From the NCBI RefSeq assembly GCF_024700885.2, contig NZ_CP117016.1: a DNA stretch of 64,000 nt; one strand, 5' to 3'. A program made the translations under genes and the position numbers. This document shows, piece after piece, positions 14,322 through 18,065 of this stretch. A model generated the notes under the pieces. It was not told where the DNA came from. It worked only from the letters and a program-made list of their open reading frames with translations, and made no database searches. The stretch is from Escherichia coli. Lineage in GTDB: Bacteria; Pseudomonadota; Gammaproteobacteria; Enterobacterales; Enterobacteriaceae. Numbering within the stretch: the stretch's first letter is position 1; every line of letters starts with the position of its first letter.

Positions 14322-16235
14322 ATGTCATCCGATATTAAGATCAAAGTGCAAAGCTTTGGTCGTTTCCTCAGCAACATGGTGATGCCAAATATCGGCGCGT
14401 TTATCGCGTGGGGTATCATCACCGCGTTATTTATTCCAACAGGGTGGTTACCGAACGAAACGCTGGCGAAGCTGGTCGGGCCAATGATCACTTATCTCCT
14501 GCCGCTGCTGATCGGTTATACCGGTGGTAAGCTGGTAGGCGGCGAACGTGGCGGTGTAGTCGGTGCCATCACCACCATGGGCGTTATCGTCGGCGCAGAT
14601 ATGCCAATGTTCCTTGGTTCTATGATTGCAGGTCCGCTGGGCGGCTGGTGCATTAAGCACTTCGACCGCTGGGTAGACGGTAAGATCAAATCCGGTTTTG
14701 AGATGCTGGTGAATAACTTCTCCGCAGGCATCATCGGGATGATCCTCGCTATTCTGGCATTCCTCGGCATTGGCCCGATTGTTGAAGCCCTGTCCAAAAT
14801 GCTGGCTGCGGGCGTTAACTTCATGGTTGTCCATGACATGCTGCCGCTGGCGTCTATCTTTGTTGAACCGGCGAAAATCCTGTTCCTCAACAACGCCATT
14901 AACCACGGTATCTTCTCGCCGCTGGGTATTCAGCAGTCCCATGAACTGGGTAAATCCATCTTCTTCCTGATTGAAGCTAACCCAGGTCCGGGTATGGGCG
15001 TGCTGCTGGCGTACATGTTCTTTGGTCGTGGTAGCGCTAAACAGTCTGCGGGCGGTGCGGCAATCATCCACTTCCTGGGCGGTATCCACGAAATCTACTT
15101 CCCGTATGTGCTGATGAATCCGCGTCTGATTCTGGCCGTTATCCTCGGTGGTATGACTGGCGTGTTCACGCTGACTATCCTGGGCGGTGGTCTGGTTTCT
15201 CCGGCATCTCCGGGTTCTATCCTTGCTGTACTGGCGATGACACCAAAAGGTGCTTATTTCGCTAACATCGCGGGTGTGTGTGCGGCGATGGCTGTCTCCT
15301 TCGTTGTCTCTGCTATTTTGCTGAAAACCAGCAAAGTGAAAGAAGAAGATGATATTGAAGCAGCAACTCGTCGTATGCAGGACATGAAAGCTGAGTCTAA
15401 AGGTGCGTCTCCGCTGTCTGCGGGCGATGTGACTAACGACCTGAGCCACGTACGTAAAATCATCGTTGCCTGTGATGCCGGTATGGGTTCCAGTGCAATG
15501 GGCGCAGGCGTGCTGCGTAAGAAAATTCAGGATGCAGGTCTGTCGCAGATTTCTGTTACTAACAGCGCGATCAACAACCTGCCGCCAGATGTGGACCTGG
15601 TCATCACTCACCGTGACCTGACCGAACGCGCTATGCGCCAGGTTCCGCAGGCACAGCATATTTCGCTGACCAACTTCCTCGACAGCGGCTTGTACACCAG
15701 CCTGACCGAACGTCTGGTTGCTGCCCAGCGCCATACTGAAAACGAAGTGAAAGTGAAAGACAGTCTGAAAGACAGCTTTGACGATTCCAATGCTAACCTG
15801 TTCAAGCTAGGCGCGGAGAACATCTTCCTCGGTCGCAAAGCGGCCACCAAAGAAGAAGCGATTCGTTTTGCTGGCGAGCAACTGGTGAAAGGCGGTTACG
15901 TTGAGCCGGAATACGTTCAGGCGATGCTGGATCGTGAAAAACTGACCCCGACTTATCTGGGTGAGTCTATCGCGGTGCCACACGGTACGGTTGAAGCGAA
16001 AGATCGCGTACTGAAAACGGGCGTGGTGTTCTGCCAGTACCCGGAAGGCGTGCGCTTCGGTGAAGAAGAAGATGACATTGCCCGTCTGGTGATTGGTATT
16101 GCTGCCCGTAACAACGAGCACATTCAGGTTATCACCAGCCTGACCAATGCACTGGATGATGAATCCGTCATCGAGCGTCTGGCACACACCACCAGCGTGG
16201 ATGAAGTGCTGGAACTGCTGGCAGGTCGTAAGTAA
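14322..16235 (+). CDS. mtlA: PTS mannitol-specific EIICBA component
   Basis: 637-aa ORF, N-terminus [31 protein letters not shown] matches recalled MtlA; full length. Confidence 0.97.
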
Positions 16236-16245
16236 TCCAATCCTA

Positions 16246-16301
16246 CCCTCTCCTCACGGAGAGGGTTTGGGTGAGGGAAAAGCCTCACCCCAGCCCTCTC
16301 G
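16246..16301. repeat. GC-rich nested palindromic element in the mtlA-mtlD intergenic region
   Basis: ccctctcc(16246-16253)-tcac-ggagaggg(16258-16265); gggtgagg(16269-16276)-gaaaag-cctcaccc(16283-16290); a third ccctctcg copy at 16294-16301 could pair alternatively with ggagaggg. Confidence 0.6.
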
Positions 16302-16329
16302 GGTAAAAACATTGATGAAGGTTAATACT

Positions 16330-17478
16330 ATGAAAGCATTACATTTTGGCGCAGGTAATATCGGTCGTGGCTTTATCGGTAAACTGCTGGCAGACGCGGG
16401 TATCCAACTGACGTTTGCCGATGTCAATCAGGTGGTACTTGATGCCCTGAATGCCCGTCATAGCTATCAGGTTCATGTGGTCGGTGAAACCGAGCAGGTA
16501 GATACCGTTTCCGGCGTCAATGCCGTCAGCAGCATTGGTGATGATGTCGTTGATCTGATTGCTCAGGTTGATTTAGTCACTACCGCCGTTGGTCCGGTTG
16601 TGCTGGAACGTATTGCTCCGGCAATCGCCAAAGGGCTGGTGAAACGTAAAGAACAAGGTAATGAATCCCCGCTGAACATTATCGCCTGTGAAAACATGGT
16701 ACGCGGCACCACGCAGCTGAAAGGCCATGTGATGAACGCCCTGCCGGAAGATGCCAAAGCGTGGGTAGAAGAACACGTTGGCTTTGTCGATTCCGCCGTT
16801 GACCGCATCGTGCCGCCTTCGGCTTCTGCAACCAACGATCCGCTGGAAGTGACGGTAGAAACATTCAGCGAATGGATTGTTGATAAAACCCAGTTCAAAG
16901 GCGCGCTGCCGAACATCCCAGGAATGGAGTTAACCGACAACCTGATGGCATTTGTCGAACGTAAACTCTTCACCCTGAATACAGGTCATGCTATAACCGC
17001 GTACCTCGGAAAACTGGCCGGTCATCAGACCATTCGTGACGCTATTCTCGACGAGAAAATCCGCGCGGTGGTAAAAGGTGCGATGGAAGAAAGTGGTGCA
17101 GTATTGATCAAGCGCTACGGCTTTGACGCAGACAAACATGCGGCGTACATCCGGAAAATCCTCGGTCGTTTCGAGAACCCGTATCTGAAAGATGATGTAG
17201 AGCGCGTAGGCCGTCAGCCGCTGCGTAAACTGAGTGCTGGCGACCGTCTGATCAAGCCACTGCTCGGAACGCTGGAATATGGTCTGCCACATAAAAACCT
17301 GATTGAAGGTATTGCCGCTGCAATGCACTTCCGCAGTGAAGATGATCCGCAGGCTCAGGAACTGGCAGCACTGATCGCTGACAAAGGTCCGCAGGCGGCG
17401 CTGGCACAGATTTCCGGTCTTGATGCCAACAGCGAGGTTGTATCCGAGGCGGTAACCGCTTATAAAGCAATGCAATAA
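16330..17478 (+). CDS. mtlD: mannitol-1-phosphate 5-dehydrogenase
   Basis: start at internal ATG 16330 ([20 protein letters not shown], Rossmann motif) gives 382 aa; the longer track ORF from 16147 runs through the intergenic palindromes. Confidence 0.96.
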
Positions 17479-18065
17479 TGGTGGACCAGGCGCAGGATAC
17501 CCTGCGCCCGAATAACAGATTGTCAGATATGCAGGCAACAATGGAACAAACCCAGGCCTTTGAAAACCGTGTGCTTGAGCGTCTGAATGCTGGCAAAACC
17601 GTGCGAAGCTTTCTGATCACCGCCGTCGAGCTTTTGACCGAGGCGGTAAATCTTCTGGTGCTTCAGGTATTCCGCAAAGACGATTACGCGGTGAAGTATG
17701 CTGTAGAACCGTTACTCGACGGCGACGGTCCGCTGGGCGATCTTTCTGTGCGTTTAAAACTCATTTACGGGTTGGGCGTCATTAACCGCCAGGAATACGA
17801 AGATGCGGAACTGCTGATGGCATTGCGTGAAGAGCTAAATCACGACGGCAACGAGTACGCGTTTACCGACGACGAAATCCTTGGACCCTTTGGTGAACTG
17901 CATTGCGTGGCGGCGTTACCACCGCCGCCACAGTTTGAACCTGCAGACTCCAGTTTGTATGCAATGCAAATTCAGCGTTACCAACAGGCTGTGCGATCAA
18001 CAATGGTCCTTTCACTGACAGAGCTGATTTCCAAAATCAGCTTAAAAAAAGCCTTCCAAAAGTAA
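17478..18065 (+). CDS. mtlR: mannitol operon repressor
   Basis: 195-aa ORF; ATG overlaps the mtlD stop (TAATG); operon position. Confidence 0.93.
   Translation: MVDQAQDTLRPNNRLSDMQATMEQTQAFENRVLERLNAGKTVRSFLITAVELLTEAVNLLVLQVFRKDDYAVKYAVEPLLDGDGPLGDLSVRLKLIYGLGVINRQEYEDAELLMALREELNHDGNEYAFTDDEILGPFGELHCVAALPPPPQFEPADSSLYAMQIQRYQQAVRSTMVLSLTELISKISLKKAFQK

Follow-up and report, generated by a model that had tools for sequence, protein, structure and literature searches.

A diverged inverted BoxC pair conserved between mtlA and mtlD is a candidate mRNA stability or processing element in Enterobacteriaceae

Introduction

BoxC repeats have been catalogued in Escherichia coli for thirty years without a function, and instability of their flanks is the sole property assigned to them. 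Holder et al. 2015 (PMC4666352) equate BoxC with the PIT elements of Maher and with the TMECO motif; BoxC is credited to Bergler 1992 and Bachellier 1996-99, PIT to Hoyne and Maher 2000 and 2002, and TMECO to Holder 2015 itself. Here, we analyze a 64,000-nt stretch of E. coli DNA (contig NZ_CP117016.1; hereafter the window) that carries a diverged BoxC pair in the spacer between mtlA and mtlD of the mtlADR operon, and we compare this spacer among E. coli strains and across Enterobacterales.

Petrillo et al. 2008 (PMC2267715) list 22 BoxC repeats from E. coli, whose consensus is ttttCCCCTCACCCtaaCCCTCTCCCCaaaGGGGCGAGGGGac, and Holder et al. 2015 (PMC4666352) report 23 TMECO copies in MG1655 and no TMECOs in Salmonella. 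Five of the sites are inverted pairs that join a type-A unit (TTA linker) to a type-B unit (CCG or CTG linker), and partial deletion of such pairs leaves a hairpin, i.e. the "palindrome effect" (PMC4666352). According to the same study, TMECO flanks show raised variability and TMECO oligonucleotides form stable intrastrand triplexes in vitro, while dimethyl sulfate (DMS) footprinting in vivo found no triplex and a duplex formed once the complement was present.

REP/BIME elements resemble the mtl element in being intra-operon, GC-rich palindromes of a dispersed repeat family. In malEFG, they serve as a model for the 3'-exonuclease barrier and the unequal operon expression proposed below, although stabilization is a feature of REPs and is only proposed for BoxC. 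The REPs between malE and malF are said, from 1987 work by Newbury and colleagues, to stabilize the upstream mRNA. The two families differ in that their sequences are unrelated, and the BIME found in K-12-type mtl spacers is a separate insert of 135 nt or longer located upstream of the BoxC pair. Another group of comparable structures is formed by intercistronic hairpins processed by RNase III or RNase E, such as those of rpsO-pnp, the T7 early mRNA sites, and papBA. Like these, the mtl element lies between two cistrons and has a long, near-perfect helix with a conserved internal mismatch, next to an A/U-rich single strand. However, with ~18 bp the mtl helix is among the shorter ones for RNase III, and the resemblance is one of form only.

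Results

Two alternative folds in the mtlA-mtlD spacer

In the window, the spacer between the end of mtlA (16235) and the ATG of mtlD (16330) is 94 nt long. An initial annotation of this DNA described two adjacent hairpins and a third copy of CCCTCTC at 16246-16301, and both the coordinates and the description are accurate based on the sequence and a repeat search. Specifically, hairpin A (16245-16266, + strand) is a perfect 9-bp pairing of a left arm ACCCTCTCC (16245-16253) with a right arm GGAGAGGGT (16258-16266) around a TCAC loop; its left arm begins 9 nt past the mtlA stop codon, and its energy alone is -16.4 kcal/mol. A TTT linker separates it from hairpin B (16269-16290, + strand; -15.5 kcal/mol alone), in which the left arm GGGTGAGG (16269-16276) and the right arm CCTCACCC (16283-16290) form 8 bp around a GAAAAG loop. 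Hairpin B is followed by a CAG linker, the third motif CCCTCTC (16294-16300), and GGG (16301-16303), with 26 nt from the end of the element to the mtlD start codon. The chance expectation of CCCTCTCCNNNNGGAGAGGG is 0.09 per window when 3 mismatches are allowed, and the nested palindromes are confirmed as a real feature, not a chance one.

The third CCCTCTC can displace the left arm of hairpin A, which produces an 18-bp helix (S2, GAGAGGGTTTGGGTGAGG ... CCTCACCCCAGCCCTCTC; 16259-16300, + strand) with 16 Watson-Crick pairs among 18 positions. This long helix is mutually exclusive with hairpin A, and its arms (16259-16276 and 16283-16300, 18 nt each) are 89% complementary in the repeat search. 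Folding of the spacer RNA bears out a stable structure, with a minimum free energy (MFE) of -40.2 kcal/mol compared with -26.1 +/- 3.3 in 200 shuffles (z = -4.25), and none of the shuffles was as good. The long helix is found in the MFE structure, and hairpins A and B in the centroid. In isolation, hairpins A and B together with a mini-hairpin (CCC-TCTC-GGG), which the predicted folds form from the third motif and the GGG in the A+B state, reach -37.5 kcal/mol vs -33.0 kcal/mol for the long helix, and in the partition function of the window the right arm of A pairs upstream with a probability of 0.55 and downstream with 0.45. When the left arm of A is blocked in silico, as it would be by a ribosome halted on the mtlA stop codon, the long helix forms instead, and the Shine-Dalgarno region drops in predicted accessibility from 0.51 to 0.22. 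No complementarity of the third motif, or of the element, to the mtlD Shine-Dalgarno region was found.

Scans of the same DNA for other signals were negative. A sigma-70 promoter scan returned nothing at the element, and an intrinsic terminator scan of 15900-16700 found no terminator-like site there, the helix being followed by GGGTAAAAACATT, i.e. by an A-run and not a U-run. In a covariance scan against Rfam 15 at permissive E-values, the best matches were microRNA models (E = 0.66-1.4), far below their gathering scores and attributable to chance.

Membership in the BoxC/PIT/TMECO family

The element is a diverged inverted BoxC pair, in which a full unit (16246-16277) abuts a truncated unit of opposite orientation (16283-16303). 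The complete unit, CCCTCTCC-TCAC-GGAGAGGG-TTT-GGGTGAGGG, is on the minus strand in the published BoxC orientation. A BoxC hidden Markov model profile built from the 22 published E. coli copies (PMC2267715 supplement) was searched against both strands of the 64-kb window (128 kb) and finds a single significant match there. This match lies on the minus strand from 16281 to 16246, with 21.1 bits and E = 1.5e-5, and orthologous mtl elements score up to 45.7 bits against the profile. The truncated unit (CCTCACCC-CAG-CCCTCTC-GGG, + strand) contains the third motif, and its stretch 16283-16300 matches the left half of a plus-strand unit and corresponds to BoxC profile positions 7-24; it scores 5.5 bits, which is not significant by itself. 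In reverse complement the unit reads GAGAGGGCTGGGGTGAGG, similar to the type-B TMECO linker (Holder 2015, Table 1; PMC4666352). As in the known inverted pairs, the + unit has a TTT linker (TTA in most genera), and the inverted unit, which is truncated, reads GAGAGGG-CTG-GGGTGAGG on the minus strand. The third motif and the alternative pairing are an automatic consequence of two BoxC units in inverted orientation, and the two-state behavior proposed below likewise stems from this architecture.

The likeness to BoxC/PIT/TMECO extends to the three blocks and their order (CCCTCTCC, GGAGAGGG, GGGTGAGGG) with loops of 3-4 nt, to the intergenic position, and to a TTA/TTT-linker unit inverted against a CTG/CCG-linker unit, the second of which is partly deleted with a hairpin left. 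By contrast, the mtl element lies in an operon transcript and is conserved over many genera including Salmonella, whereas typical copies vary among E. coli strains. The strict TMECO pattern (CCCTCNCCC-N3-6-GGGNGAGGG-N3-GGGNGAGGG) has no match on either strand of the window, because the first two blocks (CCCTCTCC and GGAGAGGG) are 8 and not 9 nt long, and it is satisfied in 24 of the 67 orthologous mtl elements. The mtl copy is also absent from both published E. coli lists that we compared, i.e. the 22 copies of Petrillo 2008 and the 23 of Holder 2015.

With a canonical BoxC query, BLAST finds a median of 19 places in an E. coli genome, and the 63-nt mtl element, searched against 5426 E. coli genomes, matches only its own locus (1 place per genome). 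As such, the mtl copy is a diverged member, whose link to the family comes from the literature and the profile instead of BLAST. The initial annotation had offered an ordinary BIME/REP-like repeat as an alternative and held that a common dispersed repeat without effect on the operon would refute a regulatory role. Membership in a dispersed family stands, through the BoxC/PIT/TMECO profile, and the REP/BIME assignment falls, the REPs being outside the window; nor is this an ordinary copy, being found once per genome and far more conserved than its family.

Several Enterobacter and Pluralibacter genomes carry canonical, strict-pattern TMECO units ~1 kb downstream of mtlR, some of them as inverted A+B pairs (L020 5125-5305, L024 5125-5360, L025 4809, L028 4793, and L030 4668-4757). 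This shows that the family is active or abundant in those genomes.

Conservation across genera

We extracted the mtlA-mtlD spacers of 80 Enterobacterales loci that encode close MtlD relatives, with one genome per species and a sampling confined to Enterobacteriaceae and Erwiniaceae. The composite element is found at the same position in 66 of the 80 loci, always as hairpin A, linker, hairpin B, linker, CCCTCTC-GGG, and leader (TAAAAACATTGATGAAGGTTAATACT-ATG). These belong to Escherichia, Citrobacter, Salmonella (both loci, L017 and L023), Klebsiella, Enterobacter, Kosakonia, Leclercia, Lelliottia, Pluralibacter, Yokenella, Phytobacter, Siccibacter, Cedecea, Buttiauxella, Atlantibacter, Franconibacter, Mangrovibacter, and others. 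The resulting alignment holds 67 non-identical rows, i.e. 65 distinct rows from the 66 element-bearing loci (L013 duplicates L011) plus the window and K-12 (L001). Free variation is confined to the apical loop of hairpin B (6-25 nt) and to the stretch that separates hairpin A from the mtlA stop codon.

Conservation of the element far exceeds that of neutral sites. Fifty-eight loci have an mtlD identity to the window of less than 0.6 at four-fold sites (mean 0.525); in these, identity to the window is 0.92 over the 43 element columns and averages 83% over the leader and ribosome-binding region, compared with 52.5% at the four-fold sites. Judged on these comparisons, the mtl copy appears far more conserved than is the norm for the BoxC family. 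All genera share the CAG linker, the GGGTAAAAACATT junction, and the truncation of the second unit; the common truncation and junction rule out independent insertions and argue against homogenization by canonical copies. The element appears to have been fixed in the mtlA-mtlD spacer before the sampled Enterobacteriaceae genera diverged.

In 39 of the 67 spacers, inserts of 29-171 nt separate the mtlA stop codon from hairpin A (145 nt in K-12), and the element is kept. The inserts include REP-like palindromes, a BIME, ERIC-like elements, and an extra BoxC, so this slot collects several repeat families. For example, Citrobacter, Salmonella, and Klebsiella have REP-like palindromes there, and Cedecea neteri (L061) has an additional full BoxC. 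An insert of ~130 nt with gtgaatccccaggagc.tacataagta.gtgactggggtgagcg is shared by Citrobacter werkmanii, C. youngae CCUG 30791, and Enterobacteriaceae RIT691 (L011 2281-2412, L013, and L051); we take this sequence to match the ERIC/IRU core of the ERIC primer sequences.

The BoxC pair is missing from 14 of the 80 loci. Thirteen of these, from Pantoea and relatives (L069, L071, L073, L075-L080, and L082-L085), have a Pantoea-type spacer of 91-99 nt with tandem GC hairpins built on another motif (GGGGCGGGcaaGCCCGTCCC, GGGGCGGatttGCCCGCCC), and the remaining one (L081, an uncultured Cedecea) keeps a single hairpin. Given these unrelated hairpins and the hairpin of L081, it seems that some stable mtlA-mtlD hairpin is needed. 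With the T-rich tail behind it, the second Pantoea-type hairpin looks like an intrinsic terminator or attenuator placed between the two genes.

Covariation and strand bias

Covariation of the long helix was scored over 19 column pairs of the 67-sequence alignment (A2), with 500 shuffles and partner-slid controls. The helix is paired in 91.4% of cells, and 7 pairs comprising 21 cells are changed on both sides, values that 0 of 500 shuffles reach. Sliding the partner by 1-3 columns lowers pairing to 36-58%, and RNAalifold independently predicts the same helix. Informative changes occurred in at least six separate lineages. For example, the linker covaries as TTC/GAA in Klebsiella oxytoca, CCA/TGG in Siccibacter colletis, and TTCC/CGAA in Buttiauxella, and hairpin B has compensatory changes in Franconibacter (GGGAAAGGG/CTCTTTCCC) and in another lineage (GGGTGAAAGG/CCTTTCACCC).

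Hairpin A was scored per sequence and without column counts, because MAFFT misaligns its left arm. It is found in 67 of 67 sequences with 7-14 bp, and its arm lengths and loop-closing pairs change together, as seen in CCCTCTCC/GGAGAGGG and CCCTCTCCCC/GGGGAGAGGG, in a CT/AG insertion into both arms in K. michiganensis, and in a C-G to U-A change at the loop in Mangrovibacter. Its left arm lies 7-14 nt after the mtlA stop codon in 28 of the 67 spacers, including that of the window. Across the 67 rows, the right arm of A pairs upstream with a mean probability of 0.58 and downstream with 0.41, so that both folds are predicted to be retained over ~67 species and to be near-isoenergetic in most of them. 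The mutually exclusive pairings proposed in the initial annotation are thus real, in that the 18-nt alternative arms and both folds, close in energy, are kept.

Non-Watson-Crick cells outside the linker also differ by strand. Read on the mRNA-sense (plus) strand, 48 of them are G·U and 6 are A·C, an excess that would be expected if it is the mRNA-sense strand that folds. In the leader, an RNase E-like RNWUU motif is present in 60 of 67 sequences compared with 34.65 in shuffles, which is only a hint given a short motif and related sequences.

Spacer variation within E. coli

In K-12 and most other E. coli strains the mtlA-mtlD spacer is longer, with 229, 318, or 419 nt, and the extra DNA is upstream of the element. 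It consists of a degenerate hairpin (ACCCTCTCCacatGGAGAAGGT) and one to three REP pairs (BIME), for example in L001 (296-440), L003, L004, and L007. Aligned with these K-12-type spacers, the window allele (16236-16253) looks like the product of a deletion between two CCCTCTCC direct repeats. A junction-specific query finds the short-spacer allele in 868 of 5426 complete E. coli genomes (16%), including O157:H7. The 63-nt mtl element itself is present in 5404 of the 5405 E. coli genomes that have the region, with at least 99% identity in 4829. The upstream flank is therefore polymorphic through the BIME indel, while the element is kept in E. coli and across genera.

We rejected a REP/BIME identity for the element on these grounds: the REP pair lies wholly in the 135-325 nt that are missing from the window, the BoxC sequence is unrelated, and the REP consensus palindrome (GCCGGATG...CGGCCTAC type) is not in the window spacer.

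A second spacer of the window shows how other BoxC loci behave. Between lldD and trmL, 13 kb from the mtl copy, the window has ~15 nt (29863-29877) and no BoxC, and K-12 has ~165 nt (locus L086, 319-515) with the inverted BoxC/TMECO pair #17/#18 of Holder 2015. This difference is the usual presence/absence polymorphism of BoxC.

Locus and neighboring genes

A 351-nt query over the site is 100% identical to E. coli strain 2012C-4221 and 99.4% identical to an O157 strain, and the RefSeq annotation of the matching E. coli DNA places mtlA and mtlD on either side of the spacer. In the window, mtlA (14322-16235, + strand) encodes 637 aa and ends with TAA at 16233-16235, as given by the open reading frame (ORF) list and the RefSeq annotation of identical E. 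coli DNA. The mtlD gene (16330-17478, + strand; ATG at 16330) encodes 382 aa according to the sequence, the ORF list, and RefSeq, and is followed by mtlR (17478-18065). The A/U-rich, conserved leader and ribosome-binding region of mtlD, TAAAAACATTGATGAAGGTTAATACT (16304-16329, + strand), has its Shine-Dalgarno sequence GAAGG at 16317-16321.

In the short-spacer allele, the mtlD frame is open upstream to an ATG at 16147 within mtlA, giving a 443-aa ORF (16147-17478, + strand), and the record of E. coli B354 has a "mannitol-1-phosphate 5-dehydrogenase" of 443 aa (P0002). This longer MtlD is probably a mis-annotated start codon owing to the stop-free spacer. Further downstream, a 1909-aa ORF (20218-25947, + strand) with an ESPR signal and YadA head, stalk, and anchor domains is a trimeric autotransporter adhesin. 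It makes up the bulk of ~6.9 kb between mtlR and lldD that is absent from K-12.

Discussion

The reading that we favor, with a probability of roughly 0.5, is that selection keeps the element as a folded structure of the mtlADR mRNA, most likely a nuclease barrier or a processing signal. We infer that the selected molecule is RNA, and conservation, covariation, and the G·U strand bias make an mRNA-level role of the mutually exclusive structures, as the initial annotation had suggested, plausible at the level of sequence. The transcript would adopt two states, one with three hairpins (A, B, and the CCC-N4-GGG mini-hairpin) and one with a single ~18-bp helix that joins the right arm of A to the third CCCTCTC. 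Speculatively, and by analogy with known intercistronic structures, either state may block 3' exonucleases and so protect the mtlA segment; in addition or instead, the long helix may be an RNase III-type site, while RNase E-type cleavage would take place in the conserved A/U-rich stretch behind it. If processing is involved, RNA ends that depend on RNase III or RNase E would be expected at the base of the helix or in TAAAAACATT. The result would be an mtlA part uncoupled from the mtlD-mtlR part, with the mtlD ribosome site free of upstream pairing. Tentatively, the mtl copy could be a co-opted or even ancestral BoxC, whose two-state RNA would set the mtlA:mtlD-mtlR ratio through processing or coupling to mtlA translation; we consider this fuller proposal less likely than not.

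Several points weigh against an RNA stability or processing element. Conserved helices, compensatory changes, and transcribed-strand bias are all present, as in structured RNAs generally, but the core arms are almost invariant and covariation is found mainly in the linker and hairpin B. For the stem that the right arm of A makes with the third motif, at the outer end of the long helix, the support consists of conservation and G·U variants only. The third motif has drifted, with CCC...GGG kept, in two or three genera (Entomohabitans, Siccibacter turicensis), a pattern that fits the three-hairpin state better. Shuffle controls overstate significance in sequences that are related. The inserts found in 39 of 67 spacers show, moreover, that closeness to the stop codon is not essential. 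As cited in PMC4666352, the tests of Hoyne and Maher found PIT/BoxC to be without promoter or terminator activity or effect on RNA polymerase. Our literature search found no paper on the mtlA-mtlD spacer, and nothing further on later TMECO/PIT work.

The plus strand is also the non-template strand, so that its folding as DNA would equally produce the observed bias, as G·T, and a DNA-level function (intrastrand triplex, cruciform, protein-binding palindrome, or recombination hot spot) has to be weighed. TMECO triplexes in vitro and variable TMECO flanks (PMC4666352) speak for such a function, as does the unstable upstream flank at mtl, with its BIME indel between CCCTCTCC direct repeats and its REP, ERIC, and extra BoxC inserts elsewhere. 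We nonetheless consider it unlikely. DMS footprinting found no triplex in vivo, and a duplex formed in the presence of the complement (PMC4666352); the E. coli copy, with 8-nt blocks only, fails the TMECO pattern. The double changes in hairpin B restore Watson-Crick pairs at the cost of the purine-triplex register with the right arm of A, which argues against the triplex as the selected structure. An element that promotes instability would, in addition, not itself stay so stable. A G-quadruplex in the G-rich arm, which reads GGG-AGA-GGG-TTA-GGG-TGA-GGG in many genera, was rejected as well: the E. coli copy has only three G3 tracts, and complementary C-rich arms are present in cis. For DNA, Holder et al. 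(PMC4666352) excluded a G-quadruplex by NMR. No more probable is a functionless relic of an old BoxC insertion, which would simply persist, or be homogenized by gene conversion with other BoxC copies, without any effect on the mtl operon. BoxC/TMECO is indeed dispersed (the median of 19 places per genome), work in vivo has not assigned the family a function (PMC4666352), and the alternative pairing comes with the inverted-pair layout. A relic, however, is hard to reconcile with 92% identity where neutral four-fold sites have 52.5%, and conversion would erase the truncated unit, the CAG linker, and the GGGTAAAAACATT junction, all of which are outside the canonical consensus. Salmonella, reported to be TMECO-free (PMC4666352), retains the mtl copy, and ordinary BoxC loci come and go between strains, as the K-12 lldD-trmL pair that is missing from the window does.

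Two regulatory alternatives start from the RNA itself. Translation of mtlA up to its stop codon could melt the left arm of A, flip the RNA to the long helix, and thereby alter the translation or cleavage of mtlD, which would tie mtlD output to mtlA translation. The near-isoenergetic folds (mean 0.58 vs 0.41), the fold change on blocking that arm, and the 28 of 67 spacers, including the window, in which it is within reach of a terminating ribosome would all suit such a switch. In 39 of 67 spacers, however, K-12 among them, hairpin A is beyond the ribosome and the element is still kept, the third motif is not complementary to the mtlD ribosome site, and there is no candidate ligand or factor. 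The change in Shine-Dalgarno accessibility is small and depends on predicted, uncertain long-range pairs with the coding sequence. We therefore rejected a switch that controls mtlD translation, and we regard a two-state switch in general as quite improbable. Far less probable still is that the element is the RNA target of MtlR, a HEPN-fold protein. As no DNA binding had been found, Anantharaman et al. 2013 (PMC3710099) predicted that MtlR is non-catalytic and represses through RNA binding, and the element is a conserved structured RNA within the operon that MtlR controls. Yet a 2026 study (PMC13421365), which makes no mention of the spacer, explains MtlR by docking on CRP at the mtl operator and release through sequestration by EII-Mtl. 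The mtlR gene is moreover present at 77-81% identity in all 14 loci that have no BoxC pair, i.e. the two do not co-occur, and MtlR is thus an unlikely RNA-binding partner.

What is new here is an unlisted BoxC member that is deeply conserved at an orthologous intra-operon site and has RNA-type covariation; the inverted-pair arrangement as such was already known. Should the mtl copy prove inert, it would remain instructive as a diverged member of the kind missed by censuses based on patterns. If it is a selected two-state RNA that sets the mtlA:mtlD-mtlR ratio, this would be the first function for any member of BoxC/PIT/TMECO, a family without an assigned role since the early 1990s. The mtl copy offers a clean and genetically tractable test of whether such repeats can act as RNA elements in mRNA stability, processing, and unequal operon expression, and the 16% of complete E. 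coli genomes without the adjacent BIME provide a natural control.

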